Source: a virus
Taxonomy: Duplodnaviria; Heunggongvirae; Uroviricota; Caudoviricetes
Virus record (IMG/VR): IMGVR_UViG_2029527006_000005
Length of the DNA: 64,000 nt
Strand: one strand, 5' to 3'
Translations under genes and position numbers: made by a program
The notes under the pieces: model-generated
Database searches by the model: none
Told to the model about the DNA's origin: nothing
Seen by the model: only the letters and a program-made list of their open reading frames with translations
Shown here: one piece after another, positions 16,767 to 35,264 of the stretch
How the letters are laid out: each line of letters begins with the position of its first letter
Numbering within the stretch: position 1 is the stretch's first letter

Positions 16767-16860
16767 AGTACTTAAAAGCTATAGACGGATCTCTGCACCC
16801 TGTGGGTTACGGCTTATCTGCCAATGACCTTAGTATAGGCCACCAGCAGATTATAGTCAA
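16767..16860 (-). promoter_or_regulatory. Promoter-CCCACAGGGTG unit 1 (no ORF; Chi in spacer)
   Basis: TTGACT-17-TATACT, motif 25 bp downstream, then AGTACT. Confidence 0.8.
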
Positions 16861-17123
16861 GAGGCTTTTGGTAATTTCTTCAGTACTTTTTTCAGTACTG
16901 CCAGATCATCACCTTTGTGTAATACCTTGCCACCGAGATCATTTAGCTGGTATGATCCATCCACGAAGTAGCGGAGGAAGTAATCAGGCTCACAGTTATT
17001 CTCTTCATCTGTGTTATGATAGATTGCGAAGTACTCAAGTACTTCATCTTCATCATTCACATCATTCCAATCGTCAACGTTGCCGATACCAAAGATTCGA
17101 TTAAGAGCAATAGATAATTTCAT
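16857..17123 (-). CDS. Acidic hypothetical protein
   Basis: AGGAG RBS, start MKLSIA. Confidence 0.75.
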   Translation of the reverse strand: MKLSIALNRIFGIGNVDDWNDVNDEDEVLEYFAIYHNTDEENNCEPDYFLRYFVDGSYQLNDLGGKVLHKGDDLAVLKKVLKKLPKAS

Positions 17124-17192
17124 TTTGTATCTCCTGTTTAAGTACTGATATAATAGCAAAAGGGATGACTCTCGTCAACCCTTTATTTTGTG

Positions 17193-17360
17193 TTACAGTC
17201 TGGTTACTTTCACCTCGTAGCCGTGTGCGGTGAAGTACTGAGTGTCATCTGTGTGCATCGCTAACAGGTCATCAATGCTCACTCCGTAGTGCTCGTGTAC
17301 ATCACCTGCGGTCAATCGAGCGTTGTCAACCATGAAGAACTGAGTACGATACTTAGACAT
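17193..17360 (-). CDS. Small hypothetical protein (55 aa, MSKYRTQFF...)
   Basis: Read manually; follows cassette A RBS. Confidence 0.7.
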   Translation of the reverse strand: MSKYRTQFFMVDNARLTAGDVHEHYGVSIDDLLAMHTDDTQYFTAHGYEVKVTRL

Positions 17361-17489
17361 AATGTTTTCCTTAATTTAGGGGAGAACCATTTCTCTCCCT
17401 ATGCAAAACATTATACAGTATCTGGGGGAGTATGCAAGTACTTTTATCAATTATTTTTGCTCTTGACAAAGTACTTGCATTGCTATATA

Positions 17490-18023
17490 TTAGCAATCCA
17501 TTTCACGCCAGCTAGCTGGTACATCGTAAGTTTCTACATCGCCACCAGCACTATCCAAATCACCAGCGTTCGGGCAGCAAGGGGAGCATAAGAAGTACTT
17601 CCCTACAGTCTTGCTATCCATCACACAGATTGTATTGTTATCAGTGTTATAGATAACAGTAGTGTCATCGATTGTTGCTACGTGGATATCACCTGTAAAC
17701 TCTTCGTACTGGCGATCATGTTCTTCCACCAGTTCAGTGAGATCATTACCTTCCTCATCTTGCAGATTGTTAAGGAAGTCAAGCATTACATCTTGAATGC
17801 GAGCGAGGTAAGTACTGAATAATTCATTCTCTTCCTGCTCAGGAGTAACGAAACCATGTTTTGCCGCAAACTCGATATCACATTCTAATCTGCGTGAATC
17901 GATGCCATTACAGAAGATATCATGCAGTACATCACCGTTTACGTTGTTCGCGTTGATATAGCCGTAAGCGATACCAGTAACAGGGTTAACGTTGATCATA
18001 TCTCGTACATTGTTGTGAATCAT
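17490..18023 (-). CDS. Hypothetical phage protein (GIAYGYI...CSPCCPNAGDLD)
   Basis: Cassette A upstream; Cys-rich C-terminal motif. Confidence 0.8.
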   Translation of the reverse strand: MIHNNVRDMINVNPVTGIAYGYINANNVNGDVLHDIFCNGIDSRRLECDIEFAAKHGFVTPEQEENELFSTYLARIQDVMLDFLNNLQDEEGNDLTELVEEHDRQYEEFTGDIHVATIDDTTVIYNTDNNTICVMDSKTVGKYFLCSPCCPNAGDLDSAGGDVETYDVPASWREMDC

Positions 18024-18141
18024 GATTTCATTCCTTAACTTGGAGAGAAGAACCATTTCCCCTCTCGATGTAAAACATTATACGATGTTTGGGAGTAGTA
18101 TTCAAGTACTTTTTGAAATTTATTTTATCCGTATTTGATTT

Positions 18142-18246
18142 AGTACTTCGATGAAAAAATATACAATCCTTAAACGGTTTTGTGCACCCTGTGGGTTAGC
18201 TTGTTTCCGTAAACATATAATAGCAAAAAGGGCCGACCGAAGTCAA
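18142..18246 (-). promoter_or_regulatory. Promoter-CCCACAGGGTG unit 2
   Basis: TTGACT-18-TATTAT (cassette B), motif 21 bp downstream, no ORF. Confidence 0.8.
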
Positions 18247-18255
18247 CCCTTTCTT

Positions 18256-18429
18256 TTAAATAATTTCAACGCGATCACTAACACCTTTGGCGTGTGCTTT
18301 CAGTACTTCATTGCGTTGCCAATTGTCAAGAGACTTAAGCTCTTTGTATTCGTTGTCGGTCCACTGGCGATCTGTGTTACCGATCTCGTACCACTTTTGT
18401 TTGAGTGCGTCCAGTTCTACGTGTACCAT
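18256..18429 (-). CDS. Small hypothetical protein (57 aa, MVHVELDALK...)
   Basis: Read manually; GAGGG RBS and own promoter. Confidence 0.7.
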   Translation of the reverse strand: MVHVELDALKQKWYEIGNTDRQWTDNEYKELKSLDNWQRNEVLKAHAKGVSDRVEII

Positions 18430-18650
18430 GTTGTAACCCTCTCTGTTAAGATGTATACATTATATGATAGTGCACCAGCAATGTCAAGGAATATTCAAAT
18501 ATTGTTTCATTTGATTCCAGTACTGAATTGTGCTAGGATCATTAATTGCATTTCCTACGTATAGCACTGTTAGTACTAATAAGATTAAGCCGGGTAGTCT
18601 CATGATTATTCCTAAGCAAAAGGGCTGACATATGTCAACCCTTATTTGTT

Positions 18651-18866
18651 TTATTCGATACCGCCATCAGTAGGCCAGTGATCGCGAATGAATTGCAAGC
18701 TGTTTGGTGTGAAGTTCTTCACCAGTGCTACCCTGTGTGCTTCAGCCAGTTCTTTAGTACTGAAGTCTGCACCGGGTTGATAGTGCTGGTTATTCATCGC
18801 GTAGTCCAAGTATACTACATCGTATGGCTTGGAGTTGGTATCGGACCATTTGCGAACTTTAAACAT
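18651..18866 (-). CDS. Hypothetical protein (MFKVRKWS paralog)
   Basis: Paralog of 18921..19175. Confidence 0.8.
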   Translation of the reverse strand: MFKVRKWSDTNSKPYDVVYLDYAMNNQHYQPGADFSTKELAEAHRVALVKNFTPNSLQFIRDHWPTDGGIE

Positions 18867-18920
18867 TTTGCTTTCCTTCTTGAGTTGATGGATTCATTAT
18901 ATACCCACCAGCTAAGAGAG

Positions 18921-19175
18921 TCAATCTTTTTTCTTTGGTTTCTTATCTTTTTCTTTTGGTTCTTCTTTGGGTTCTTCGGGCCAGTTCTCTCTAACAAACT
19001 CAAATGATCCAGTACTATATGATGCTCTGTCAAGTGTTATCTTGTAACGCTCGGCATCTGTTTTAGTTCTGAATGTAATATGTGGTTGATAGTATACCTT
19101 CTTTAATGCAAAATCTATAAACACCACATCATAAGGTAATGCGTTGCTGGTGGACCACTTACGGACTTTAAACAT
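18921..19175 (-). CDS. Hypothetical protein (MFKVRKWS paralog)
   Basis: GAGG RBS; paralog of 18651..18866. Confidence 0.8.
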   Translation of the reverse strand: MFKVRKWSTSNALPYDVVFIDFALKKVYYQPHITFRTKTDAERYKITLDRASYSTGSFEFVRENWPEEPKEEPKEKDKKPKKKD

Positions 19176-19236
19176 AGTTACTTCCTCTTAGTTGATAGGA
19201 TAATTAGCACCCTATCAACTATTTAAGAAGTACACT

Positions 19237-19824
19237 CTAAATGCAGAGCTTTTCGCGGTTCTTTAGTTTGCCCGACGCAAGACCATTCCAGATGTTAGTA
19301 CTGAATCCGTAATCTAACATCTTCACTACACCACTACGAGACACGCCCATGTTACGTGGTGATATGTCTGCGAAGTTGTTCGTAAATGCGTTGTCGTCCG
19401 TGTTGCTCACGTCTTTGTATAGACGGCGTTCAACGTTACTACGTGCTGTACGCGAGGTACGCCACAACCGCATAGAGTAGCTATTGAATAGATTTTTGTT
19501 TGATAGTTTGTCAAGTCTTTCCATCACAATAAAGAAATCTTTCCAGTGACATGCTTCGATCAGTACTTTAGCAAAGGAACGTTTCATACCAGTGAATGAG
19601 TAATCAACCAAATTCCATACACGGATTTCGTTTTCGTTTTGCTTGACACCAGTCCCGCCTTTGGCTACCTTCACCACCAGCGTATCACTTAATGCAAACA
19701 CTTCGCGGCTACTACCTGCACCCAATCGAGTCAAGTTCTCTTTGCAGTACTTAAGCATCTCAGTATTAGTGCTCAGGTGACCTAGTTCGTGTAAGTGTAG
19801 TTTAGCTGCTTTGGTGAGGTACAT
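19237..19824 (-). CDS. Ser/Thr protein kinase-like protein
   Basis: LGAGSSR Gly loop, VVKVA Lys, NENE helix C, VMERL hinge, DISPRN catalytic loop, LDYG; start MYLTK after AAGGAG. Confidence 0.8.
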   Translation of the reverse strand: MYLTKAAKLHLHELGHLSTNTEMLKYCKENLTRLGAGSSREVFALSDTLVVKVAKGGTGVKQNENEIRVWNLVDYSFTGMKRSFAKVLIEACHWKDFFIVMERLDKLSNKNLFNSYSMRLWRTSRTARSNVERRLYKDVSNTDDNAFTNNFADISPRNMGVSRSGVVKMLDYGFSTNIWNGLASGKLKNREKLCI

Positions 19825-19891
19825 AGTATTACTCCTTCGTTTCGATATAGATATAATAGCAAAAGGGCTGACATGTGTCAACCCTTTTTTA

Positions 19892-20170
19892 TTAATGCGT
19901 TCTAAATGCTTTGTCTGCTGACGGTGGAATATCACCCTTGCGTACACCAAACGTATGTAGTGGTGCTTTCTGGTTCTTTGTGCTATACACTTTACCAGTA
20001 CTTTGTGCAATATTCATCATGTATTGTCCATCTTGTGAAACGAATATACGATGGTCATCAGTACTGAATTTTGGAACAAACTGGAAACCTTGAGATTTCA
20101 ATGTTTGTGGTAGCTGATCCAGTTGAATAGTAGACCACTGCTTTACAGTGTCTAAGTCTGTGCGTATCAT
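19892..20170 (-). CDS. Hypothetical protein
   Basis: AAGGAG RBS. Confidence 0.75.
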   Translation of the reverse strand: MIRTDLDTVKQWSTIQLDQLPQTLKSQGFQFVPKFSTDDHRIFVSQDGQYMMNIAQSTGKVYSTKNQKAPLHTFGVRKGDIPPSADKAFRTH

Positions 20171-20339
20171 AATGATCTCCTTGTAATGTTACAAGGTTAT
20201 TTATTGATACGGCAAACCTCCGCTAAATCTTCGATGCTGGCCCCTTGCTCGTGCAGGTTGACAAGATCAAAGATATGATCATTGCAGTACTGGACCGCTG
20301 CTTTATCACCTCTGATTAGAGCAATTATTTGCTGGTAAA

Positions 20340-20555
20340 TCATTTACGTAAACACCCCATGATAATGCCCTGTAATAACTGACGCTTAACCGGATGATTG
20401 GCTACTGTTGCTTTGATGCGATTAGCTTCACGTAGTATACCATCACACTGTTCCTTTGTCAATTTATCGATGACTAGTTGCGTGTTAGTACTTTGTACTG
20501 TACCCTCTTGCATTTTGAATCGGATACCGTTTAAAATTAATGAATGAGTTGGCAT
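20340..20555 (-). CDS. Hypothetical protein
   Basis: GGAG RBS. Confidence 0.7.
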   Translation of the reverse strand: MPTHSLILNGIRFKMQEGTVQSTNTQLVIDKLTKEQCDGILREANRIKATVANHPVKRQLLQGIIMGCLRK

Positions 20556-20567
20556 GGTAATCTCCCT

Positions 20568-20768
20568 TTAGTTATCGCATGAGATTACCTCTTTGTTCGT
20601 GTACTTCACTTTGTAGTATCCATTTAGTGAACGCCATTCGTAGATGTATGAGAGTATATTACCATCTAGGTCATCGTCTGTCAAGCCTGTAATTTCGGCG
20701 TGATGGGTTTCGTAATTGTCCTCATTGGGTTTAAGTCCCTTCAAGGTTACTCGTACTGTTATTGACAC
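20568..20768 (-). CDS. Hypothetical protein
   Basis: GGAG RBS, GTG start. Confidence 0.65.
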   Translation of the reverse strand: MSITVRVTLKGLKPNEDNYETHHAEITGLTDDDLDGNILSYIYEWRSLNGYYKVKYTNKEVISCDN

Positions 20769-21022
20769 GTGTACTCCTTTGTGATACCATCGAATTGCAT
20801 AATGATATTGTTTCCGTGCAGGATATATGTTACAGTACCGAATCGATCTTTAGCCACGAATAAACCGGGCTTGACTTCTTCGGCAACAACATGTTCGTTT
20901 GTGTCCACCAGCGAAGTGTTATCAATGATAAATCGAGTACTGAAACCATCAGCACTACAGATCAAGTCCTGTGCTAATACTGGAGTACTGAAGAGTGCAG
21001 CGAGTAAGAGTAAATGTTTCAT
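20759..21022 (-). CDS. Small exported protein
   Basis: Signal peptide MKHLLLLAALFSTPVLA; two Cys. Confidence 0.75.
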   Translation of the reverse strand: MKHLLLLAALFSTPVLAQDLICSADGFSTRFIIDNTSLVDTNEHVVAEEVKPGLFVAKDRFGTVTYILHGNNIIMQFDGITKEYTCQ

Positions 21023-21088
21023 CGTTTGGTCCTCTTTGGTTGTACTGATATAATAACAAAAAAGGCTGACATATGTCAACCTCTTTTT

Positions 21089-21607
21089 TTAATCTTCGTA
21101 AGTGAATGGTGTGATTGCATCGCTAATGTATTCAACAATAGCTAATGGATCGTCTTCACGTGCTGTAATCTCTGCTGTAGCTCTGTATGCGGCCTGTAGA
21201 GCGTTTTTAACTTTAGCCGGGGCTACCTCTTTAAGTTCTGCAATTAATCGCTTAGAATGGCGTACATCGCCTTTAAACGCTGCTTTCCAATCATCTTGTA
21301 AAGTACTGATAAGAGTTTTAGAATCTTTTGGCATTGGTTTCTGTACTTCTGGTTCTGGTGTTGGCTTACCACCCATTAAGCCTAGGGATTGGAAGTATCT
21401 TAGTTTCTCGTCTGGTTTCATTCGAGAGGTATCGACTAGTGTATCGGTTACTGTGTTTGCTTTACCTGCTGCCCCTGTTCCTTGATTACGGGAGCCACGC
21501 GATCCCTGTCCTGCGTTATGGCTATTACTGCGGCGGTTCTCATCGCTCCACTTGTCCGAGTGTCCAGCGAGAGTAGCACCTGATTTAGAGCGGAATTGAC
21601 CCGGCAT
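21089..21607 (-). CDS. Hypothetical protein with basic, disordered N-terminus
   Basis: AGGAG RBS before MPGQF. Confidence 0.8.
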   Translation of the reverse strand: MPGQFRSKSGATLAGHSDKWSDENRRSNSHNAGQGSRGSRNQGTGAAGKANTVTDTLVDTSRMKPDEKLRYFQSLGLMGGKPTPEPEVQKPMPKDSKTLISTLQDDWKAAFKGDVRHSKRLIAELKEVAPAKVKNALQAAYRATAEITAREDDPLAIVEYISDAITPFTYED

Positions 21608-21619
21608 AATTAATTCTCC

Positions 21620-21707
21620 TGTGCATGAATTATAGATATATTTATGCACCCTGTGGGTTAGCTTGTTTCTATGCGTATATAATAACAAAAGGGCTGACTC
21701 TCGTCAA
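21620..21707 (-). promoter_or_regulatory. Promoter-CCCACAGGGTG unit 3 (leader of 21089..21607)
   Basis: TTGACG-17-TATTAT, motif 21 bp downstream, overlaps GTGCAT..ATGCAC inverted repeat. Confidence 0.8.
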
Positions 21708-21923
21708 CCCATTTTTTACATGTATTTTAAATATAATCTGTCAAATGATTCTAATGCTACAACAGCGTTTGATGTTACAATTCTTTCCCTTCCACATCTT
21801 ACGGTGAAGTTCTGTCCGTCAAAAGTCATGATTACATCATTGATGTTTCGAATACGTTTCATTTGGTTCTTTCCAATATGTGCTACCCTATGGAAAGTAT
21901 TATACCAAATGATCCAATAGTGA

Positions 21924-22175
21924 TCAACGCTGATTTACAAAATCATTGTACTTTTCGTGAGACATTAAATGTAGTTGCTTTTCTTTGTCAATTACGATAC
22001 GCTCAGTTCGGGAAATATCCAGTACTTGGAATAGTCCGTTACTCAGTTTGCGAGCGTGGAGATCACCACTTATGAAACTGTTAGCTGCTTTGACAGCCTT
22101 CTCTACAATCTTCTTTTGCGGCTTGTAGTGCAGTTTCATGAAATTACCGTTGACTAATTCGACTTGCTTTTTCAT
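21924..22175 (-). CDS. ParE/RelE-like small protein
   Basis: 83 aa, LDISRTERIV...LMSHEKYN C-terminal pattern of a ParE-like family. Confidence 0.55.
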   Translation of the reverse strand: MKKQVELVNGNFMKLHYKPQKKIVEKAVKAANSFISGDLHARKLSNGLFQVLDISRTERIVIDKEKQLHLMSHEKYNDFVNQR

Positions 22176-22218
22176 TTTGGTTTCTCTTAAAGGTGGGGGA
22201 TTTCTCCCCCTGTGTTGG

Positions 22219-22590
22219 TTAGCTACGGGCGAGACTAGCAGCCAGTAGTGCGGCGGTGCGTGAGCGGCGAACAAGTACATTCACGTTATTACCCTTGCGA
22301 TCTTTCAGGGTGTAGCTGTGATTGTGCACTTGACGTGAGTCCACCAGCGGCAAACCCATAATATCACGCGGTTCTACTGGCTCAAGTGCTACGTCCATCA
22401 CTTCAGCCTGAAGCATTGCAGCAAGCTGTGCGACGGCCTCAGACTTAGGAGCTTCTACCGTGTATTGTACTTCCCAACGCTTACCAGCAGGAGCATCAGC
22501 ACCGTTATCAATGATCTTGCCGTCATAATCTACTTTAGCGTGTCGTGCATCGTTACGGGTTTTGCAGAACACAGATTTGATAGTAGCCAT
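22219..22590 (-). CDS. Hypothetical early protein
   Basis: GAGG RBS, own promoter. Confidence 0.8.
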   Translation of the reverse strand: MATIKSVFCKTRNDARHAKVDYDGKIIDNGADAPAGKRWEVQYTVEAPKSEAVAQLAAMLQAEVMDVALEPVEPRDIMGLPLVDSRQVHNHSYTLKDRKGNNVNVLVRRSRTAALLAASLARS

Positions 22591-22798
22591 TTTTGTACTT
22601 CCTCTTTGTGGTTGATGTAAGTATTATACTTTAATGTCGATTCGGTGTCTAGTACTTTTTACTTCTTTTTGATGCTCTTTTACTTCTTTGACAATCCTTT
22701 CTTGTTGGGGAATACTGTAAGTATTATACACTGTCCGGTAGATTGGTGCAACTGGTGTAATCATCTTTAAGTACTCCCCTTGTGTTTAAAGTATTATA

Positions 22799-23116
22799 TC
22801 ACAGTGAAGCGAGGGAACCAAGGAAAATCTCTGCTTCTTCCATCGTTACAACCCTTGCGTTCTGTCCGTTCAAAAAGATAGTAGCAATGTCTTTTTCTGC
22901 TCTGTGGCGGGTGATGTAACGTTTTATATCATTACGCCCTGATGCTGGTAAGTGGTTACCTTCCAAGTAGTAACCGCTGTAAATGCAATCTTTGCCTGTC
23001 CACGGATTCTTTACCATAATGGCAAAGTTACGATCAGAGCTACCCAGAGTACTATACATAGTATGACCAACTGGAGAGGTGTCGATTGTTTTTCGCATTG
23101 CTGAATGTAAAGCCAT
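22799..23116 (-). CDS. Hypothetical protein
   Basis: GAGG RBS. Confidence 0.75.
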   Translation of the reverse strand: MALHSAMRKTIDTSPVGHTMYSTLGSSDRNFAIMVKNPWTGKDCIYSGYYLEGNHLPASGRNDIKRYITRHRAEKDIATIFLNGQNARVVTMEEAEIFLGSLASL

Positions 23117-23217
23117 TTTTTAAATCCTCGTTTGTTTAAAGGTTCTTTCTCGTCTTGATGTAAGTATTATACAGTACTGTAAGAGGGAGTCAACAACTAT
23201 TTTCAAAATAAAAGTAC

Positions 23218-23340
23218 TTGACACCGCGATCTGTTTTTGGTATTATATATCCCATAGAGACAACTAACCCACAGGGTGGGATAATCTATCCAAATTTTAT
23301 AGTACTGTACAAATAAACAGGGGAGTGGTTAGCTCCCCAT
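23218..23340 (+). promoter_or_regulatory. Promoter-CCCACAGGGTG-LexA box-hairpin unit 4
   Basis: TTGACA-17-TATTAT; motif 23268; CTGTACAAATAAACAG 23305-23320; GGGGAG..CTCCCC hairpin. Confidence 0.85.
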
Positions 23341-23989
23341 TGTGTTACATTTTGCGGATTGCTTTCACGGTATCTTTTACAGATTTACCCGCTAACAAAA
23401 GTTCTTCAATCTTCGCGTACTGCTCAGTTGTCAGGTCTTCGCCCGTCTGTGCCAGTACTGCTTCGTATTGAGATTCTTTCATTTTCATTTCCTCGGTTGT
23501 TTGCTGTTGATGTAAGTATTATAAAGTACTCGCTCAGTAAATGCAAGTACTTTTAATCATTACGCCTCTCTTACACTACGATATGATCCTTTAATATCTT
23601 GCAGCTTTTTGACACGTTGCCACGCATCACCAGCCGAATAACCCCATTCACGCACGAGGGTTACACCACCAGATTTAAGAATCACTTCAAATACAAATTC
23701 TTTTTTCATAGTATCTTGATCCCCTCATAACCACCAGCGATGGCAGAATGGAAATCAATCTTTGTTTCGTGTGAGATCCATTTAGCCTTTAATACAGTAC
23801 CTACCGGATAGAAACTAGTAGCCCAATCCATTACTTCGGCGTGTTGTTCTTCTCGCTCTTTACGCTCAGTACTAACCAGCATTTTAGTAGTGAAGTTCGA
23901 AGTACTTACATCCAGAGAGTAGATAGACTATTTTTTTAATTCCTTGTTTGCTTAAGATGGGACTATTATATAATAGCCCCTGTGTACTG

Positions 23990-24529
23990 TCAAGCCTTAT
24001 CTTTTAGATAATCAGGTAAATCTGTATTCTGATAATCTAACTCTTTAAGTACTTGCTTATCCTTAGTACTGTTTGAGATAATATCAAAATCGTAGATTCT
24101 GATAAGTTTCCCGCCGTAGTTCCCTGCATCGCTGTTATGCGTTACACCTTGAGCAGTAAAGAAAGCGGCTAACTCTTTAGCAATCTTATGTAAGCCTTTA
24201 ACATTCCAGTACAGCCACAATTCAAAGCGATGTGCGGTCATTGTTTCGCGTTGGCTAAACTCTTTCTTAAACAGTTTCGCCAGCTTTTGAGTACAATACA
24301 CATTACACCAGTATTGCAGGTTCGGGATTGTTATCTCTACGTTGCTTGCGTGTTGTTCCTCTTTGAGTTCCACTGTCAAGGCGTACACTGATCGCCCGTA
24401 ATGCTCGGCCCACAGATAAGAGTTCGTACAGTAGAGACCAACACCATACTGCGTACTATGGATTTTTGCACCCAGATAACCCGGACGATGATCAAACTTG
24501 CTGGAGCCGTGATAAAGGGTAGTAATCAT
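23990..24529 (-). CDS. ADP-ribosyltransferase-like protein
   Basis: LYHGS...YGVGLYCT...AEHYG is the H-G-S / G-x-Y-x-T / A-x-x-Y pattern of PARP/ART folds. Confidence 0.55.
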   Translation of the reverse strand: MITTLYHGSSKFDHRPGYLGAKIHSTQYGVGLYCTNSYLWAEHYGRSVYALTVELKEEQHASNVEITIPNLQYWCNVYCTQKLAKLFKKEFSQRETMTAHRFELWLYWNVKGLHKIAKELAAFFTAQGVTHNSDAGNYGGKLIRIYDFDIISNSTKDKQVLKELDYQNTDLPDYLKDKA

Positions 24530-25270: not shown

Positions 25271-25274
25271 TGTG

Positions 25275-27438: not shown

Positions 27439-27506
27439 GTTGCCCCCTGTTTGCTGTACTGATATAATAACAAAAGGGCTGACATTAGTCAACCCCTTTT
27501 AAAACT

Positions 27507-27932
27507 TTATTGATTTGACAAACGGGCATCCAGTGCAATGCGTACCTCGTTTAATGAGTCGATGATGCTTCCAGTAGTTTGTCCTAACTGGTTATACATC
27601 CAGTCCTCAGAAGTAACAAGACGATCCATTTCTGAAAGTACTTTCTCAGCCGCTTTCAGTTTGTCATGCCATTCATTCATTTGATTGTACTGGCGTACTG
27701 TGTAAGAATCACCAGCCAGATCTACAGGTACTTTAAACACCAGAATCTGACGGGCTTGCTTATCCATATCTTTGAACAGATCGGATGACTCTCTGAAAGT
27801 ACTGTCAACAATAGTACCAGTAAGTTTATCGTAATCGATAAACACTTGCGTTTCACCGATCAGCCCTTCCGCACGAATGGTAGGGGAGTTAGCGTCGTTC
27901 GCGAAACCGGTCATGTTAACTTTGTTGCTCAT
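27507..27932 (-). CDS. Hypothetical protein
   Basis: Cassette A upstream. Confidence 0.8.
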   Translation of the reverse strand: MSNKVNMTGFANDANSPTIRAEGLIGETQVFIDYDKLTGTIVDSTFRESSDLFKDMDKQARQILVFKVPVDLAGDSYTVRQYNQMNEWHDKLKAAEKVLSEMDRLVTSEDWMYNQLGQTTGSIIDSLNEVRIALDARLSNQ

Positions 27933-28015
27933 GGGACTTTCCTTAATTAGTGGGGGAGGTTATCTCCCCCTATGCAAAACATTATACGCTATTCAGAGAG
28001 TAATGCAAGTACTTT

Positions 28016-28321
28016 TTACAAGAAAGATACCAGCGAGGATTTAACAATAACCTCCGCTGTTACTTCGTCGTCTACTTCGGTCACGCACTTAAGAGTAACG
28101 CACCAATCGCCACCAGCAAAGTACCACGTATGGGGCTGATCACCTTCCTGATATGAGTTCTTATCTTTCAGGTCGGAACCGTCAAACGTTGGCATACCTT
28201 CCTCAAAGGCGTACAATTCAGCCTCTGCCAGATCCTTAGCCAGAATCAAACGCTTAAGGTTGGTTTCATATTCACCAATACGCTGCGTGATGTGAGCTAC
28301 GAACAGTTTGGATTTTAACAT
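28016..28321 (-). CDS. Hypothetical protein
   Basis: Own sigma70 promoter. Confidence 0.75.
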   Translation of the reverse strand: MLKSKLFVAHITQRIGEYETNLKRLILAKDLAEAELYAFEEGMPTFDGSDLKDKNSYQEGDQPHTWYFAGGDWCVTLKCVTEVDDEVTAEVIVKSSLVSFL

Positions 28322-28393
28322 TTTGTTTCTCTTTGCTTAAGTGATGTAAGTATTATAAAGTACTCGCAAAGTATATGCAAGTACTTTTATTAC

Positions 28394-28630
28394 TTACTCC
28401 ACGTTATCCCCGATCATGTTTGCAGAAAAACGAATGATCTCATATACTGCACGTAATGATTGACCACCGATACAAGTATCGACCAGATCCCCCGCTGAGT
28501 TGTACTTTTCCAGTGTATAACCACCAGCAACAGGTTGCACTTTATAACGATACTTTGCACCCATCGCAGACAGCTTGTTATTCAGTACTGACAGGTAATG
28601 ATCAACTTCGGTACGGGTTACTTTAGCCAT
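28394..28630 (-). CDS. Hypothetical protein
   Basis: Cassette A upstream. Confidence 0.75.
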   Translation of the reverse strand: MAKVTRTEVDHYLSVLNNKLSAMGAKYRYKVQPVAGGYTLEKYNSAGDLVDTCIGGQSLRAVYEIIRFSANMIGDNVE

Positions 28631-28721
28631 GATTCTATTCTCTTAATTAGGAGGGGAACCATTTCCCCTCTCTATGTAAAACATTATACGCTCTTTGGAA
28701 TACTTTGCAAGTACTTTTTAC

Positions 28722-29084
28722 TTAATGTTTAACTTCGTTATATACTTTAACACTACGGGCATCAATTACTAACTGACTATAATTTGAAACTATATTTTTA
28801 AAGAATGGAACGTTTTTATACATGATTTGCACACGTTCCTGTGTCAAGCGACGAATTAATAAAATCAATTCATATTTCTTTTGGGTATAATATGCCTGTA
28901 ATACAGTGTCAAGATACGCCGATTGTTCTGGAGTACTTTGTCCAAGTTCAACACAACGCTTGACAACAGTCTCGATTGAGTCTAGTATCTCACTTCTTAC
29001 CATACGGTTATCACCAATTAAGATATGGTGTACTGCCCACATTTCAACATCTGTGTGTTTGGTTGTATATGCTGGCTGGTGCAT
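28722..29084 (-). CDS. Hypothetical protein
   Basis: Own sigma70 promoter. Confidence 0.75.
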   Translation of the reverse strand: MHQPAYTTKHTDVEMWAVHHILIGDNRMVRSEILDSIETVVKRCVELGQSTPEQSAYLDTVLQAYYTQKKYELILLIRRLTQERVQIMYKNVPFFKNIVSNYSQLVIDARSVKVYNEVKH

Positions 29085-29164
29085 GATAGTATCTCTCTTC
29101 GCTTAATTGATGTAAGTATTATAAAGTACTCTCACACTATTTGCAAGAGTACTTTTGATAATAA

Positions 29165-29539
29165 TTAATTCAAGTAACGAATGAATCCTTGCGAGTCCAG
29201 AGCAGAGAAACCATTCTCTACAAAGATATTGCCGCGTATACCTTTGGCTACTGCGTTATAACTGGCAGACTTGAACACGTTCCCCTCAAAGTCTACACTA
29301 CCGCAGGAGCTACGCCCGTATTGCATGATCTGCCCCGTTTCGTTACTCAGTTCGACGCGATCAATCTTCCAGTACTTCGGAGACTTGCGAACTTCAAAGG
29401 CGATTGCATACGGCATCTTATCAGGGCTAAACTGTACATCTTTGCGACGGATCATTTCTTCCAACATCGCCACCAGTTCAACAGGTACAGTCTCAGCACT
29501 TGCACCACGTCCGAACAATACACGCTTAAAAGTAACCAT
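29165..29539 (-). CDS. Hypothetical phage protein (C-terminal GNVFKSASYNAVAKGIRGNI)
   Basis: GAGG RBS; motif typical of a small phage family. Confidence 0.8.
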   Translation of the reverse strand: MVTFKRVLFGRGASAETVPVELVAMLEEMIRRKDVQFSPDKMPYAIAFEVRKSPKYWKIDRVELSNETGQIMQYGRSSCGSVDFEGNVFKSASYNAVAKGIRGNIFVENGFSALDSQGFIRYLN

Positions 29540-29814
29540 CTTTATATCCTCTGTTTGGTTGATGTAAGTATTATATTAGAGTACTAAAACGAATGCAAGT
29601 ACTTTTGATAATAAAATCCCAGCTATTACAATAAGCAGTACCGCACCCATTGCACCGAAACCGATCCACATTGCCGCCAATAAAGAACCAACAGGATTTT
29701 GTCGAATTTCATTAATCATTTTGTGTTACCCTTCGTTTGGTTGATATAGGTATTATACTCTATTCCCAAAGTACTGCAAGCATTATTTTCAAATTATTTT
29801 CATTAAAAAAGTAC

Positions 29815-29998
29815 TTGACAATATCGCAGTACTTTGGCATAATACAGTCATTGAAACAAATAGCCCACAGGGTGGGGGAATCCGTCTGTTGATGTAAATG
29901 ATTATCATTCTCAAGTACTGAATACTTCTCCGCACCCTATGGGTCACGCCTTTGTTCTGGCTTAAAAGTATTATCTCATTAAGCCAGTACTTTGTCAA
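29815..29998. promoter_or_regulatory. Convergent pair of promoter-CCCAYAGGGTG units 7 and 8 around a Fur box
   Basis: Plus TTGACA-17-CATAAT, minus TTGACA-17-GATAAT; Fur-like 29894-29912 (16/19 to GATAATGATAATCATTATC). Confidence 0.85.
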
Positions 29999-30357
29999 CG
30001 TTTTATTTCTTCGTAAGGATTTGGGCGTAACGTTGGCGGCATCTCTAAATGTGAGAAGTTAAACGAGTTCCCACGGTTCGCACGTCCGATCATTTGGATC
30101 TGATTAGGGTAGAATCCTGTTAGCCAATCATCTACCCAGATGATCCCCACGCCTTCATTGATGCGTTCTACCAGTACTTTACGCTTTTGTTTACGCTTCT
30201 TTATTCTCCGCTGATGGGCGTTCGTTATCCCATTGTGGTGCGGTGTAGTGTAACGATTTTTCACAACCTTCTCCCAACACTTTTTCAACCCGTTCTCTTT
30301 CGAATTGATTTGCCTCAGTTCTGGATAATAGTTTATCATACTTTGGAGGCGTGTCAA
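29995..30357 (-). CDS. Basic hypothetical protein (start uncertain)
   Basis: ORF track; overlaps alternative 30191..30397. Confidence 0.5.
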   Translation of the reverse strand: MTRLQSMINYYPELRQINSKENGLKKCWEKVVKNRYTTPHHNGITNAHQRRIKKRKQKRKVLVERINEGVGIIWVDDWLTGFYPNQIQMIGRANRGNSFNFSHLEMPPTLRPNPYEEIKR

Positions 30358-30442
30358 CTACTTTTTCAATCTCATTCAGTACTTGACATTGATTCATTTT
30401 AAAGCTCCTGTAAGCCCCTATGCGGGGCTTTAACTTAAAGGG

Positions 30443-30685
30443 TTAGCAGTACAAGGATTCTTTATTCCAAGCCCCTGCAATGGGTTTTAGAGCGGTAGGA
30501 TCGAGTGCTATCACCTCTTTGCGGAAAACAATATAATTGATTTCCTTGTGATATACTACCCGCTCATACATTTTCCCGCCTACAATGAAACATACATACC
30601 CGCTCCAGTGTGGTTTATCACCTACTGTTACCATAGAGCGACGGGCGGTAGTGTTTGGGTCGATGAGTTGGTCAATAGTTCGCAT
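30443..30685 (-). CDS. Hypothetical protein
   Basis: Start MRTID after GAGG. Confidence 0.75.
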   Translation of the reverse strand: MRTIDQLIDPNTTARRSMVTVGDKPHWSGYVCFIVGGKMYERVVYHKEINYIVFRKEVIALDPTALKPIAGAWNKESLYC

Positions 30686-30750
30686 TGCTTTTCCTCTTTG
30701 CTTAATGTAGGGATATGATACCATATCCCCGTAATGTGTCAAGTACTTTT

Positions 30751-31131
30751 TTATACTGCTACAGATGTAACAATACGGCAATCATCACCAAGTACTTCTA
30801 CAATTTCTTTCAAAGTCAAGGTAAATTTTACCTTCCCGTTCGCTTTCAGTACTTGCACCTCATTAGGCCAGATGCCACCGCAACGGAAATAGTAGTCACG
30901 GCAAAACTTCAAAAGAGCTTGACAAAGAAACGCATCTTTGTTAAGTTCACGGCGATTAACTACGCGGGTAGTGATCCCCTCCGCTTTGTAGTCTGCCATT
31001 GTTTCTTTTGCGTCTTTGCTGCTAGTCGCTTCGCCAACGTCAGCCCATCCATAAGTAGGCACGTATTCCTGTACCATCTTAACAGTACTGAATTTGTTAA
31101 AGGTCTGTGCTGGAGTGATTTGATTAGGCAT
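30751..31131 (-). CDS. Hypothetical protein
   Basis: Own promoter; strand consistent with neighbours. Confidence 0.75.
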   Translation of the reverse strand: MPNQITPAQTFNKFSTVKMVQEYVPTYGWADVGEATSSKDAKETMADYKAEGITTRVVNRRELNKDAFLCQALLKFCRDYYFRCGGIWPNEVQVLKANGKVKFTLTLKEIVEVLGDDCRIVTSVAV

Positions 31132-31215
31132 AGTAATATTCTCTTAATAGTGTTTCGTTTCGATAAAGTCATTATGCCAGTACTCGATCAGTATGTCAAG
31201 TACTGGAGTAAAACT

Positions 31216-31419
31216 TTATACGCCGTAGATCAAATTACTTGCTTTCCACTTCCCATCTACTTTACGATGAGTCTCGATAAACATGTTATTGATTGGTGAA
31301 CGATACCCGATCAAGTCACAACCGTTTCGTGTTGCGGAGATCTTAGCACCTTTCTCAGTCAGACCAGTTTCATTGAATACTGACATGTAAACAAAACCCC
31401 ATACCTTTTGCATCTTCAT
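31216..31419 (-). CDS. Hypothetical protein
   Basis: Cassette A upstream. Confidence 0.75.
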   Translation of the reverse strand: MKMQKVWGFVYMSVFNETGLTEKGAKISATRNGCDLIGYRSPINNMFIETHRKVDGKWKASNLIYGV

Positions 31420-31522
31420 TTCCTTAATTAATGGGGGAAGATGTTTCCCCCTATGCAAAACATTATACAGTACTGCAAAAGTAATGCAAGTACGTTCTTC
31501 AAATAATATTCAGAAAAAGATG

Positions 31523-31646
31523 TTGACAAGCTGGTGGAGTACTGGCATAATACACGCATAGACAAAAACTAACCCACAGGGTGCAGCAGTCCGTCTGTAT
31601 GATTTAGTACTGTACAAATAAACAGGGGAAGCAATTGCCTCCCCTT
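31523..31646 (+). promoter_or_regulatory. Promoter-CCCACAGGGTG-LexA box-hairpin unit 9 (Chi in spacer)
   Basis: TTGACA-17-CATAAT; motif 31573; LexA box 31610-31625. Confidence 0.85.
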
Positions 31647-31650
31647 CGTG

Positions 31651-31884
31651 TTATTCTTTCAGAAGTTCAAAGTCGCCGTGGGTCAAATCTTCTGGTTCCC
31701 AATCGATCACGTTCCCGATCACGTTCCCGCTTTGAATGTCAACCACTTCACGGGAGGACTCAAAAATTTCGTATTGCCCAGTAGTTAAACCTTCTAGTAC
31801 TTGTTGTTCTGTCAGTGATGAATCCACCAGCTTGATTGACACGGAAACCATTTCTTTACGCACGAAACCAATTGAGATTGCCAT
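31651..31884 (-). CDS. Hypothetical protein
   Basis: Cassette A upstream. Confidence 0.75.
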   Translation of the reverse strand: MAISIGFVRKEMVSVSIKLVDSSLTEQQVLEGLTTGQYEIFESSREVVDIQSGNVIGNVIDWEPEDLTHGDFELLKE

Positions 31885-31966
31885 GATTCTTTTCCTTAAT
31901 AGTGGGAGAGAACTATTTCCCTCCCTATGCAAAACATTATACAGTACTGAATGAGTAATGCAAGTA

Positions 31967-32227
31967 TTATCTCATAGATCTATGCCAACAATTTCTAGGA
32001 TCTCTTTTGAAAGTACTATCATGATCCGCTTGACATTCTACGCAGTACTTGCAACCCTTAACAGCTTCACGCCTACGCTCAGGAATAGCCCTAGAACAGT
32101 CTAGGCAGTGCGTTCTACTTTCGGTAGTACTATCCCCTAGCTGTTTCCTTGCGTGGCGTATGGCGGCGTTTAGAACGGCCTGAATCTCTTCTTGCTCTGC
32201 ACCATCTTTTGCAAAACCTACTGCCAT
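31967..32227 (-). CDS. DksA/TraR family C4 zinc-finger protein (YbiI-like)
   Basis: MAVGFAKDGAEQEEI; CLDC...IPERRREAVKGCKYCVECQ. Confidence 0.9.
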   Translation of the reverse strand: MAVGFAKDGAEQEEIQAVLNAAIRHARKQLGDSTTESRTHCLDCSRAIPERRREAVKGCKYCVECQADHDSTFKRDPRNCWHRSMR

Positions 32228-32283
32228 AAATCCCCCAATAAAAAAGGCTACCAAGTGGTAGCCTTTTGTGTTAAGCTGTTAAG

Positions 32284-32907
32284 TTATTCAGCGAAAGCGG
32301 CTGCTGCTGCTTCTTTATCCACTGCGTGAGCAAGGATAAAATCTTTATGGGTAGTGTACCCGCCAGCGGTCATAGCGTCTTTGAGTACCTGCACCATGTT
32401 ACCAGAAGTTGGCATGTTGTACTGTTTGCCGTCAACCGTTACAGGGATGCGGGTAAAGGTGTATTTTGGCTCTTTGTTAACATCGCCGTACTTCTTAGCG
32501 ATTGCCGCCGTTGCTGCCGCTTCTGCCGCTTCGAGGTCAAGACCCATGCCGTTTACAGTGTCCATGAGGAACTTGAGCATGTTTTCTTTTTCTACTTTGA
32601 TTTCTTCGTCACGTTTGGCGATTTCAGCGAGGCGATCCGCTTTCTTCGCTTCACGGCGTTGTGCTGCTTCTTCTGCCGCCTGTGCCGCCGCTTTTGCGTT
32701 CTCTTTGAGTACTTCTTTCGCGTCTTTAACTGCGAGGGAGAAAGTCATACCCAATTTAGATACGCCGTCTTTGTCGCCGCCAATCTTCGCGAGGATAATC
32801 GCGAGTGCTTTGTGATCACCAGCTTCGAGAGCGGATTTAAGGGTTACACGTGATGCTGCTTCTGCGTTGTTGGTAGCGGTGTTTGCGTTAGTGTTGATAG
32901 TAGTCAT
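32284..32907 (-). CDS. Ala/Lys-rich coiled-coil protein, possible H-NS-like nucleoid protein
   Basis: Coiled coil plus a C-terminus that aligns by eye to the H-NS DNA-binding domain; strong promoter and terminator. Confidence 0.5.
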   Translation of the reverse strand: MTTINTNANTATNNAEAASRVTLKSALEAGDHKALAIILAKIGGDKDGVSKLGMTFSLAVKDAKEVLKENAKAAAQAAEEAAQRREAKKADRLAEIAKRDEEIKVEKENMLKFLMDTVNGMGLDLEAAEAAATAAIAKKYGDVNKEPKYTFTRIPVTVDGKQYNMPTSGNMVQVLKDAMTAGGYTTHKDFILAHAVDKEAAAAAFAE

Positions 32908-33305
32908 TTGTATTTCCTCTTAAAGTTTAGTTAGGTTGTTTGCTGTCTACGTGGTCATTATCTCAATTTCCCACCAGCTTGTCAAGTACTTTTTAAAACT
33001 CTTTTCAATCTTTCTTTCCGAGTCAGCACCAGATATTCATACGACTTACTGGCTGTCTACTTAGGGAAGTTAATCTGTCCCGCCGCTCTATGTGATACAG
33101 TATGCCTGTTTCCGTTCCATCCGTCAAGTACTTTTTAAGAGATTGACAATCTTTTTTTCATTTTCCTTATATTTCAGTACTAAAGCATAACGCCACCAGC
33201 AAGCCTATAACGCGTTTAAAGTACTGCCCTAATATGTTTGCTTGCATTATTCGTTGAACGGCTTATAGAGCGATACAGAGCGTTTAAATTCATTTGAAAA
33301 AGATG

Positions 33306-33430
33306 TTGACAGTACTGATCAAATCCTGTATTATGTATCTCATGAAAACAAGCTAACCCATAGGGTGCAGCAGTCCGTCTATAGGATTTAGTACTGTACA
33401 AAATAACAGGGGAAGCAATTGCCTCCCCTT
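33306..33430 (+). promoter_or_regulatory. Promoter-CCCATAGGGTG-LexA box-hairpin unit 10
   Basis: TTGACA-17-TATTAT; motif 33357; CTGTACAAAATAACAG 33394-33409. Confidence 0.85.
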
Positions 33431-33439
33431 GTGTTATCA

Positions 33440-33886
33440 TTACGCCCAGATATCACCGCCGATCTTCTGGCAAATGCTAGTACTGACATAGTTGCAATTC
33501 ATAAGCTCATTGGTTGTGAACAATCCACTGTAGGAGTCTGCCCCGATCTTGATACGCTTTTCAACGTGAATACGGGAACAGAAAAATACTTGCTTACTGG
33601 TAGTAACCCAAATGCTAGTGCCTAATTCAAAGTGCTGTTGTTCTTCTGGTAGTTGGCGAGTCTCTATCTCGATATGATACCAGTCTTGCAACGGACGGCC
33701 TTTGTAAAAATTGAAGTGATCAATGACCGTTTCCAGATTCGTTTCAGTATCTACTACCGACACGATCACGGCCTCTTTCTCTTCCATTTGCAGTACTGCC
33801 ATTGCTTCATGTACAGTGTTTGCGGTTACGTTAGCATCGGTTACGTTGCCGTCTGGAGTCTTGAAAGTCAGGTAGTAGATAGTCAT
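33440..33886 (-). CDS. Hypothetical protein
   Basis: Cassette A upstream. Confidence 0.8.
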   Translation of the reverse strand: MTIYYLTFKTPDGNVTDANVTANTVHEAMAVLQMEEKEAVIVSVVDTETNLETVIDHFNFYKGRPLQDWYHIEIETRQLPEEQQHFELGTSIWVTTSKQVFFCSRIHVEKRIKIGADSYSGLFTTNELMNCNYVSTSICQKIGGDIWA

Positions 33887-33969
33887 TTTCGTTTCTCTTA
33901 ATAGTGGGGGAAGATGTTCCCCCTATGCAAATCATTATACGCTTATCAGGGAGTAATGCAAGTACTTTC

Positions 33970-34587
33970 TTATGCAATTCCCAAAACTTCGCCCGCCTGA
34001 TTTACTTTAAAATCGTATTCATTAGCTTCGATAGTAGACCAAAGTGCTTCATCACTTGATTGATAATCATTCTCATCATCAAGCTCTTTATAAACTTTGC
34101 TTGACAAGTCGCGAATTGTATCAGTCAAAAACTCTTCCAGTACTTCACTCGCTAAAACTTGTTTGTGTGTAAAGTCGATATTATAATCAAGCTCTACGCT
34201 ACCGCTTACAGTGTTTTCGTGACTGTAGCGGGAAGATCCACGGTTTACTTTCGCGTGAATCTCTTCATCGGCAATGATACGATGCAAGCGACGGAATTTA
34301 GACCACGCTTTAACCTTGCGTAAAAACTTCTCAAGATTGATATAGTAGTCAGTACTGATAGATGCACCGTCGCCCTGTGAGCAAAAACCAGACCATTCGA
34401 TCTCTGCATTATAAATGCCGTATTCAGTGTCTAAATCCGCTTTCCACTGATCAGTAATATCTACAGACCAATAAGGGGTAGAGTCCTGATTCTCTAACGC
34501 TCGCATAATCTCAATTGCCTGTGCTTTCTGTGCTTCATTCAGTGCGTCATAAGATACTGCTTTGATAACGTCGATGATGTTTTCCAT
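33970..34587 (-). CDS. Acidic hypothetical protein with WSGFCSQGDGAS motif
   Basis: Motif shared with a widespread phage/plasmid family of unclear function. Confidence 0.75.
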   Translation of the reverse strand: MENIIDVIKAVSYDALNEAQKAQAIEIMRALENQDSTPYWSVDITDQWKADLDTEYGIYNAEIEWSGFCSQGDGASISTDYYINLEKFLRKVKAWSKFRRLHRIIADEEIHAKVNRGSSRYSHENTVSGSVELDYNIDFTHKQVLASEVLEEFLTDTIRDLSSKVYKELDDENDYQSSDEALWSTIEANEYDFKVNQAGEVLGIA

Positions 34588-34671
34588 AATGCTTTCCTTA
34601 ATGAGTTGTTTCGTTTGTATGTAAGTATTATAAAGTACTCGCAGAATAAAGCAAGTACTTTTAATACTAAC

Positions 34672-34914
34672 TTACAAAGTACCGTTAGCGATCATTTCGT
34701 CGGCATTCATAAAGGCCGTTACTTTGTATTCTGAAATATCCACACAAGGGCAAACAAAACGCTCAAGGTATACAATAGTGCAGTACTGATAACCCTCACG
34801 CTCAAAGAAGCGACTAAGCAGATCGTGCAAGTGGTTGGCGTTATCTTCTGATACTACAACCGCATAAACAATCGCCTTACCTACTGTTGGAGTCATTTTA
34901 ACAATGCGTAACAT
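34672..34914 (-). CDS. Hypothetical protein
   Basis: AAGGA RBS, own promoter. Confidence 0.75.
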   Translation of the reverse strand: MLRIVKMTPTVGKAIVYAVVVSEDNANHLHDLLSRFFEREGYQYCTIVYLERFVCPCVDISEYKVTAFMNADEMIANGTL

Positions 34915-35065
34915 GTTATTTCCTTAATGTGTTTGTGTGTCTCGTTTCGATGTAGCTATTATGCAATAGGTAGAAATAGAATGCAAGTACTTTCTCAATT
35001 CTTTTTTTATCCTTCCTTATATACATATAGTACTAAATTATTTTCGATTTTCTTTTAAAAAGATG

Positions 35066-35264
35066 TTGACTCCAGCACAGGAAACCCGTATAATGTTTTA
35101 CATGGAGGCGAAACTCCCGAACCCACAGGGTGCGGAAATGTATCATATGAGCGAAATGATAATCATTCGCATTTAAAAAATTAAGGACAGACCCCCGCAC
35201 CCTGTGGGCTTGAGCATTGTTCTTGCTATGTGTATATAATATCAAAGTACTGGCAACGTGTCAA
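35066..35264. promoter_or_regulatory. Convergent pair of promoter-CCCACAGGGTG units 11 and 12 around a Fur box
   Basis: Plus TTGACT-17-TATAAT, minus TTGACA-17-TATTAT; AATGATAATCATT core at 35155-35167. Confidence 0.85.

Follow-up and report, generated by a model that had tools for sequence, protein, structure and literature searches.

The window, i.e. the whole stretch of 64,000 nucleotides that was analyzed, is derived from a Rak2-like jumbo phage and contains a direct terminal repeat (Table 1), whose ends were placed by blastn against the 19,736-bp PhageTerm repeat of fENko-Kae01; by the same approximate mapping, the left end of the genome lies near 36210. The 11-mer CCCAYAGGGTG occurs in 12 exact copies exactly where the earlier note had located them, all inside the repeat, compared with 0.04 expected copies and none among 100 shuffles reaching 12. 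A covariance model of the element returned the same 12 copies and no others in the window, and a thirteenth match with one mismatch at 39030 lacks a promoter. Every copy is situated on the non-template strand, 20-22 or 25-27 bp past a promoter of the type TTGAC-17/18-nATnnT; six of the 12 continue with TCYGTC, and six run antisense to the genes.

Table 1. Terminal repeat and motif-bearing units in the window, with predicted features.
Feature	Position	Strand	Details
Direct terminal repeat (pre-early region)	15830..36210		about 20 kb; genes on - strand; boundaries approximate
Pair 1 antisense unit	35066..35141	+	promoter; P1 GGAG/CTCC; P2 35121-35131; predicted pause 3' end 35139/35141
Predicted Fur-box array, central in pair 1	35152..35177	.	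47 bp between predicted pause ends
Pair 1 sense unit	35189..35264	-	promoter; P1 AGCA/TGCT; P2; predicted pause end 35189
Lone antisense unit	33306..33428	+	promoter; P2; predicted pause end 33376; AGTACT; LexA box 33392-33411; sense-strand terminator stem 33409-33428
Lone antisense unit	31523..31644	+	predicted pause end 31592; LexA box 31608-31627; terminator stem 31625-31644
Pair 2 antisense unit	29815..29883	+	predicted pause end 29883
Predicted Fur box (15-16/19), central in pair 2	29894..29913	.	40 bp between predicted pause ends
Pair 2 sense unit	29924..29998	-	P1 GCC/GGC; P2; predicted pause end 29924; no G+1
Lone sense unit	27195..27289	-	P1 TGGC/GCTA; P2; predicted pause end 27215; AGTACT at position 35; then promoter of next gene
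Lone antisense unit	25149..25270	+	predicted pause end 25216/25218; LexA box 25234-25253; terminator stem from 25251
Lone antisense unit	23218..23338	+	predicted pause end 23287; LexA box 23303-23322; terminator stem 23320-23338
Sense unit as gene leader (copy 21657)	21638..21707	-	no obstacle site; no Y-G pause step
Virion protein gene, 172 aa, PHROG 16530	21089..21607	-	behind the 21657 unit
Lone sense unit	18154..18246	-	promoter overlaps UUCG terminator hairpin; predicted pause end 18176; AGTACT only at position 49
Lone sense unit	16767..16860	-	P1 TGGC/GCCG; P2; predicted pause end 16787; AGTACT at position 35; then promoter of next gene

The claim that eleven of the promoters lack a gene holds for the units proper. 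Only the 21657 unit ends with a Shine-Dalgarno sequence and an ATG, the other 11 being without start codon, and the antisense promoters drive no gene in the window. The copies at 16806, 18195 and 27234, however, point at a gene starting approximately 90-155 bp past the motif; these genes have their own promoters, and no terminator hairpin was found directly downstream of the three copies. Several sense copies overlap an upstream terminator. The virion protein encoded behind the 21657 unit, for which fold and Atlas searches were blank, is 75% identical to gp37 of fENko-Kae01, a protein detected by MS. As cognate factor of the element the protein of the window was rejected, since the link does not extend to all genera and is missing in GAP32 and CBB. 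The unit is carried by 22 of 32 strong antisense promoters compared with 22 of 149 sense ones, and the units are more regularly spaced than random in the repeat of the window (CV 0.29, P=0.0014) as well as, at P<0.05, in seven of ten related repeats.

The earlier note had proposed scanning relatives for positional conservation and covariation, and both were found. The element is located in the terminal repeat of every relative checked, with 109 distinct copies in total; its restriction to the repeat at whole-genome scale was judged on the genomes of these relatives. Contigs from four sequencing runs yielded DNA of related phages only. The 109 copies share descent, hence the counts and P values given here overstate independence. 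All 11 viral matches are genomes of 345-378 kb, whereas the covariance model found no copy in BF23, one phi92-like phage and one Seunavirus. A host origin was rejected, since seven matches in 596 Gb of bacterial and archaeal genomes do not exceed chance for 18 fixed bases.

The alignment identified the 11-mer as part of a larger unit composed of a σ70 promoter, a 5' RNA hairpin (P1), a mini-hairpin (P2) and a match to the E. coli consensus pause. P1 covaries strongly, with 32 different stems, G-U pairs included, and 49 two-sided changes versus 18 in shuffles; it is weak or missing in the short class. Its loops are purine-rich and boxB-like. P2 represents the invariant R-CCC-N3/4-GGG-U with 4 bp (three G-C pairs and one R-U pair), in which the spacer comprises 3 or 4 nt and the CCC run shifts such that pairing is kept; its sequence is constant in every copy, without covariation, and folding of the extruded RNA into P2 is predicted for 109/109. 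The stems of 3-5 bp are usually about 4 nt apart. An alternative third hairpin between positions 7-11 (GGGUG; counted from the motif start) and 20-24 (YRUCY) is compatible with 96% of the copies, mostly via G-U pairs and without covariation; the P2 fold is preferred in 76 of the 109 copies and the third-hairpin fold in 13. Searches with Rfam 15 covariance models gave no match at gathering score and one chance match elsewhere (E=0.85), and ARAGORN was blank.

The pause consensus has been described as g-11 G-10 t-3 g-2 Y-1 G+1, with pause hairpins acting when their stem reaches -11 to -13 (PMC11077087). When position 20 is taken as -1, a choice made post hoc with the alignment already seen, G-10 is present in 108/109, T-3 in 98/109, Y-1 in 109/109 and a purine at +1 in 109/109 copies (G-10, Y-1 and purine +1 together in 108/109), and the P2 stem ends at -11/-12. 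Both the core bases and the reach of the stem thus correspond in sequence to a hairpin-stabilized consensus pause. The pause score peaks at positions 18 and 20, and the full G-10/Y-1/G+1 core is found at one of them in 84 of 109 copies but almost never at both (Fisher p=3e-7 on distinct strings), compared with a background of 4-5%, or about 20% given the upstream Gs. The remaining 25 copies are without the full Y-G step, and 66/109 have an A as +1 base for position 20. The predicted pause is 35-43 nt away from the inferred transcription start. A further promoter, made up of an activator box at -30 and TATAAT at positions 24-29, was rejected as a general feature, because the last T occurs in only 48%.

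Downstream of the predicted pause, other features occur at fixed distances. A LexA box at offset 37 in four of the 12 window copies and Fur matches (13-16 of 19) faced by four copies at offsets 30, 31, 30 and 38 agree with the earlier observations. The reported AGTACT at 33-34 was recovered in six of 12 copies; however, the hexamer is abundant throughout the window (2.4-3.6 per kb outside and 6.2 per kb inside the repeat), so that only its position is special, and it starts at positions 31-37 in 34 of 72 non-pair copies. Predicted LexA boxes start 16-18 bp ahead of the pause, with the LexA CTG at position 37-38 in 15 of 16, while predicted Fur cores start 14-15 bp ahead with the core edge at position 34-35. 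At +14 to +18, roughly one in two lone sense copies shows no recognizable obstacle. Positions 25-34 consist of 83% A+T. Sigma32, CsrA, MetJ, DnaA, KOPS and SlmA were rejected as other motif identities on key bases.

Facing pairs with Fur arrays leave gaps of 40, 47 or 51 bp, and those without central array are separated by 29 bp in all 11 cases from six phages, the AT-rich spacer having a mean identity of 52% and no indel, whereas eight different values occur for the distance between -10 and motif. For comparison, RNAP was halted 14 nt upstream of an EcoRI* roadblock, and head-on E. coli RNAPs were found by cryo-EM 26, 29 and 31 bp apart, where a nascent hairpin raised the half-life of the complex from 6 to 150 min (PMC13082048). 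In 21 lone copies with a hairpin downstream its stem starts at positions 49-55, exactly at 53 in 15 of them, with or without a LexA box, whereas no sense-assigned copy has a downstream terminator hairpin. This places the predicted release point of the sense-strand terminator 24-25 bp from position 20 of lone antisense copies. These downstream distances are fixed and equal RNAP dimensions, which supports the pause-plus-roadblock reading among the options of the earlier note, as do the consensus pause and the hairpin at pause-hairpin distance.

We therefore propose, judging from sequence features and with about even confidence, that the units act in cis and hold host RNAP in place against obstacles that can replace each other, probably as dams to read-through spaced ~2 kb apart. 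The strong σ70 promoter would fire and RNAP would pause once the 3' end of its RNA has reached motif position 18 or 20, where P2 may fold in the RNAP exit channel and prevent backtracking. The front edge of the paused enzyme would then contact a Fur array, LexA, a putative AGTACT-binding protein, a parked RNAP coming from the facing unit or a sense RNAP that has stopped at its own terminator. Presumably the nascent RNA would not be long enough for Rho, and the next holoenzyme might partly cover the upstream DNA and thereby hinder Mfd. Dams approximately every 2 kb could block read-through among about 50 strong co-oriented promoters, using host proteins already present ahead of any phage protein. 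This dam function is the likeliest purpose yet the least certain step; insulation fits poorly with pair 1, which lies upstream of all repeat genes. Further points against the parking reading are the A at +1 and the incomplete Y-G step in the copies counted above, the short P2 stem with a sequence constancy beyond what folding needs, the alternative pairing of positions 7-11 and the lone sense copies lacking an obstacle. The units may also act as bulky stops on entering DNA; two-step injection in Rak2-like phages is not known to us. In contrast, the suggested gating by SOS or iron state appears doubtful, because Fur, LexA, AGTACT or nothing at all replace each other at equivalent units across genera, and a sink for RNAP would be numerically small at the start of infection.

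If right, sacrificial promoters make host RNAP a positioned, long-lived obstacle, host repressors serve as bricks rather than sensors, and the repeat represents a natural multi-copy programmed polymerase collision with predictions exact to the nucleotide, possibly also a compact insulator part. It would also hint at the reason for the Fur and LexA boxes in the terminal repeats of T5-like and other phages. In phi92-like and Seunavirus repeats, gene-less promoters are aimed at Fur arrays. It is conceivable, though rather unlikely in this breadth, that phages with long terminal repeats spend promoters on stable structures of parked RNAP and host repressors (dams, anchors, entry checkpoints), with the Rak2-like cassette as clearest form and the strategy also present in phi92-like phages and Seunavirus, perhaps T5.

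The main rival is a trans-acting small RNA, the first option of the earlier note, which the P1 covariation supports at the level of RNA structure and which we regard as possible but unlikely. An RNA of 35-46 nt with two hairpins, set free by pausing or collision, or one of ~85-100 nt ended by a bidirectional terminator, would carry P1 as guard of its 5' end and P2 as an aptamer for, or decoy of, a protein of host or phage, while pause and obstacle would serve only to form the 3' end. Besides the covarying stems, the invariant P2 sequence and the ~10-12 copies behind very strong promoters argue for it; however, it does not predict the exact 29-bp AT-rich pair spacer, the constant distances to Fur/LexA edges and terminator or the even spacing, the structure is not followed by a U-tract in most copies, and the short class has little or no P1. 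Even under this explanation, the element would be an undescribed one kept across several genera of enterobacterial jumbo phages. The promoter-proximal two-hairpin arrangement with its boxB-like loops would also suit a station for RNAP modification, at which the RNA binds RNAP like HK022 put, or a phage factor is loaded at the pause as in the case of lambda Q/N or RfaH at ops, altering downstream termination. The 11-mer is indeed ops-like, with a terminal TG step and a possible C:G mini-hairpin (PMC5995543). We consider this improbable: every second copy is directed away from genes and towards an obstacle or terminator, there is nothing to antiterminate at facing pairs, no NusG/RfaH paralogue (PF02357) was found in five related genomes, and the central ops bases contacted by RfaH are not kept, the -10 base of that register being C in every copy.

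Still less probable is a double-stranded operator at which a phage protein represses or organizes the pre-early region. The invariant near-palindromic core RCCC-N3-GGGT, in some copies a perfect palindrome, is consistent with it, but not the single orientation at fixed distance behind a promoter, the pairing-preserving shift of the CCC run around a 3- or 4-nt spacer or the RNA-type covarying hairpin alongside, and a repressor is not needed where a promoter serves no gene. Replication origins of the T4 kind, working by R-loops or primer handoff and with the convergent pairs as bidirectional origins, are the least probable explanation, and no positive evidence was obtained for the R-loop primers of the earlier note. 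T4 origins use middle promoters; here twelve copies lie behind σ70 promoters, the hairpinned RNA disfavors a persistent hybrid, and repressor boxes occupy the expected start of unwinding. The A+T-rich DNA behind a promoter, the convergent geometry and the relationship of the phage to T4 (PMC5259590) would fit such origins.

We could not find the parked-polymerase arrangement described in the literature, and the impression that no described element matches was borne out by the Rfam and literature searches, the latter covering the terminal repeats and promoters of Rak2-like phages, AGTACT in connection with jumbo phages, and non-coding RNAs of jumbo phages; only promoters are reported in the CBB paper, and the fENko-Kae01 paper does not mention such promoters. 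Several known systems share single features. The injection-stop region of T5 (bioRxiv 10.1101/866236) resembles the repeat in carrying host-protein boxes on terminal-repeat DNA, and the corresponding region of BF23 contains Fur-like arrays, a LexA box and DnaA boxes but, according to the covariance model, no copy of the element. From ops/RfaH-type sites, which have a GGCGGTAG core, G at -11/-10 and a cognate NusG paralogue, the motif differs by C at -10 and A/Y centrally. The put RNA of HK022 (PMC9378689) is likewise a promoter-proximal nascent RNA with two hairpins, and the RNA predicted here may, like it, contact RNAP in cis; however, put consists of two long adjacent bulged stems gripping the beta' zinc-binding domain, suppresses pausing and precedes operons, whereas here stems of 3-5 bp some 4 nt apart are followed by a pause consensus and often by no gene. 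PeSL of T4-like phages (PMC4122927, PMC2839356) are also repeated σ70 cassettes of a variable early region, with similar terminator overlap upstream, but their stem-loop is placed upstream of the promoter and the cassette ends with Shine-Dalgarno and start codon, whereas the conserved hairpins here are transcribed, downstream of the start. With the class I hairpin-stabilized pause of the his leader and the consensus elemental pause the unit shares G-10, t-3, Y-1, purine +1 and the hairpin end at -11/-12; P2, however, has just 4 bp, fewer than the classic hairpins of this kind, and never varies in sequence, neither an attenuator nor a leader peptide is present, and an obstacle downstream is coupled to the pause. 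Finally, convergent σ70 transcription links the units to bidirectional terminators of E. coli (bioRxiv 10.1101/2022.10.23.513370; PMC13082048), in which a nascent hairpin sets and stabilizes programmed collisions with 26-31 bp between the active sites (PMC13082048). Predicted ends alone reach this range here, with 29 bp in the array-free pairs of relatives and 24-27 bp between antisense copies and terminators in the window. In E. coli, real genes supply both RNAPs and the site is fixed by a single hairpin common to the two, whereas in the phage repeat the opposing promoter is gene-less and thus not placed between two convergent genes, lies 35-43 nt from its own stop and has its own hairpin and pause, in an arrangement that is repeated about 12 times and often has a repressor in place of the second RNAP.

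The twelve exact copies of the 11-mer motif CCCAYAGGGTG that the earlier note had located were recovered at the same positions, with 0.04 expected in the window, and its promoter-to-motif distances and box counts were all reproduced. A covariance model of the element returned the identical twelve and none extra, in agreement with the claim that the window holds no other copies. Judged by its sequence, the window stems from a Rak2-like jumbo phage; Klebsiella phage fENko-Kae01 and Salmonella phage Munch share ~78% identity with it over alignable parts. The 19.7-kb direct terminal repeat maps to window ~15,830-36,210 (boundaries approximate), with the left genome end placed near 36,210, and nearly every small gene of the repeat has its own σ70 promoter. 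The exact motif is confined to the repeat region in five whole related genomes, a comparison proposed earlier, and matches of the covariance model are likewise confined in two further ones. The model found no copy in the T5-like, phi92-like and Seunavirus genomes examined (one of each), matches in prokaryotic genomes stayed at chance level, and an Rfam search gave no match to the element. The units, each a σ70 promoter with its motif region, are spread more evenly than random, about every 2 kb.

The anatomy of the unit was derived from 109 distinct copies, collected across roughly a dozen phages and contigs; these sequences share descent, so that counts overstate independence. The transcript opens with a hairpin, P1, whose loops are purine-rich and for which 32 different stems were counted; it covaries clearly when checked as the earlier note had suggested, and is weak or absent in a short class of copies. 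A linker of usually 4 nt leads to the mini-hairpin P2 (R-CCC-loop-GGG-U), which is paired in 109/109 copies. Counted from the first C of the motif, G11 occurs in 108/109 and T18 in 98/109 copies, while a pyrimidine at position 20 and a purine at position 21 are found in all 109. Positions 7-11 could also pair with 20-24, but neither covariation nor folding energy supports this alternative. With position 20 as RNA 3' end, the element fits the consensus pause of E. coli (g-11 G-10 t-3 g-2 Y-1 G+1), and the end of P2 falls at -11/-12, where the stem end of acting pause hairpins lies (PMC11077087). A second register is seen at position 18; the full pause core is present in one of the two registers in 84 of the 109 copies and in both in only 3. 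The pause position was chosen after inspecting the alignment, and two published distances agreed with it afterwards.

Past the predicted pause, the elements are unrelated in sequence and fixed in distance. Array-free pairs of facing units (from GAP32, CBB, fHe-Yen9-04, a 357-kb relative, EC.P1 and phAPEC6) show diverged spacers, and their predicted ends are exactly 29 bp apart in 11/11 cases, in contrast to the variable length of the upstream leader. For E. coli RNA polymerases that have collided head-on, separations of 26, 29 and 31 bp have been resolved, and the collided complexes last for hours when a nascent hairpin is present (PMC13082048). Where a Fur array lies between the units, as in both pairs of the window, the gap is 40, 47 or 51 bp, and the array core starts at position 34-35, i.e. 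14-15 bp beyond the predicted pause, the same distance at which EcoRI* halts RNA polymerase. Predicted LexA boxes begin at position 36 (CTG at 37-38 in 15/16); since they are present also in copies without terminator or without AGTACT, they are no by-product of either. Lone antisense copies are followed, LexA box present or not, by a sense-gene terminator whose stem lies at position 53 in 15/21, which would bring a terminating sense polymerase to ~25 bp from a parked one. AGTACT starts at positions 31-37 in 34 of the 72 non-pair copies.

From these features and distances we infer pausing, parking and purpose. RNA polymerase is the simplest candidate for something that a promoter delivers, that has a front edge of 14 bp and that encounters its twin at a distance of 29 bp; host polymerase would pause and then park against the obstacle ahead at a fixed distance. 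Among many strong co-oriented promoters, such units would dam read-through, in the manner outlined for collision-driven termination, which is their likeliest use. Since the first pair lies ahead of every gene, the units may instead play a part while the DNA enters the cell. In the main rival reading, the short RNA that is released would be the active product, and the distance geometry could hold under it too. The motif as an operator fits worse, because the CCC run of P2 moves along with a loop of 3 or 4 nt, as suits a single-strand hairpin better; modification of the polymerase by the unit and a function as replication origin also fit worse than parking.

Coordinates of further features in the window and in BF23
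Feature	Position	Strand	Basis or setting
Gene-less antisense promoter, ~100-nt predicted RNA into larger Fur array	35289-35520	+	sequence
Two gene-less sense promoters	36019, 35900	sense	within ~430 bp of predicted genome end
LexA-like box	35782		within ~430 bp of predicted genome end
Tandem ~28 ORFs of 135-250 aa	417-15797		
Run of mostly ~300-395-aa ORFs	36560-47377		
BF23 box regions	8955-9250; 5370-5490		

Several other features of the window were recorded. Chi sites (GCTGGTGG) number 15 on the gene strand vs 3 on the other at 16216-35893, several inside promoter spacers, and only 4 in the remaining 44 kb; oriented in this way, they would act on RecBCD that enters at the right end of the genome and might favour end protection or recombination between repeats. 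AGTACT occurs 262 times in the whole window, ~20-fold over a dinucleotide model within the repeat, frequently paired at a distance of 20-22 bp around the -35 and -10 boxes, and GTAC density is 9-13 per kb throughout the window. About ten ordinary gene promoters (16700-34000) have a distinct leader with a 5' GGGGGAA...TTCCCCC hairpin ahead of the ribosome site, and at many promoters there a folded terminator hairpin covers the -35 box. The predicted RNA of the additional antisense promoter is possibly structured, and its Fur array shows 16/19 matches at 35408 and at 35414; phAPEC6 (~18340-18620) has a similar predicted RNA followed by Met-box-like repeats of 8-bp period in place of the Fur array. 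Positional counterparts of the longer ORFs are annotated RCC1-like in relatives.

Host-protein boxes were also seen in other phages. By sequence, DnaA boxes accompany a Fur-like array and a nearly perfect LexA box in the injection-stop region of T5-like BF23, and the second repeat region has LexA and DnaA boxes; the Davison preprint, searched by word, showed neither Fur nor LexA boxes. A phi92-like phage (8716-9090) and a Seunavirus (8975-9290) have in common two σ70 promoters that lack a gene and point at a Fur array, neither unit matched by the covariance model; the first has a conserved ~100-nt GC-rich predicted RNA that may form a pseudoknot, and in KE22 the predicted transcript of the second ends in a hairpin followed by GGGTGC.

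The unit lacks features by which PeSL, put, ops and intergenic collision terminators are defined. Regarding the pause-plus-roadblock option of the earlier note, gating by SOS or iron state is doubtful: obstacles are interchangeable between genera at equivalent units, hence Fur and LexA are read as handy host proteins, available at time zero, and not as sensors. The pause and roadblock themselves agree with the sequence, by which the unit would act as a hairpin-stabilised pause combined with a roadblock or a head-on collision.
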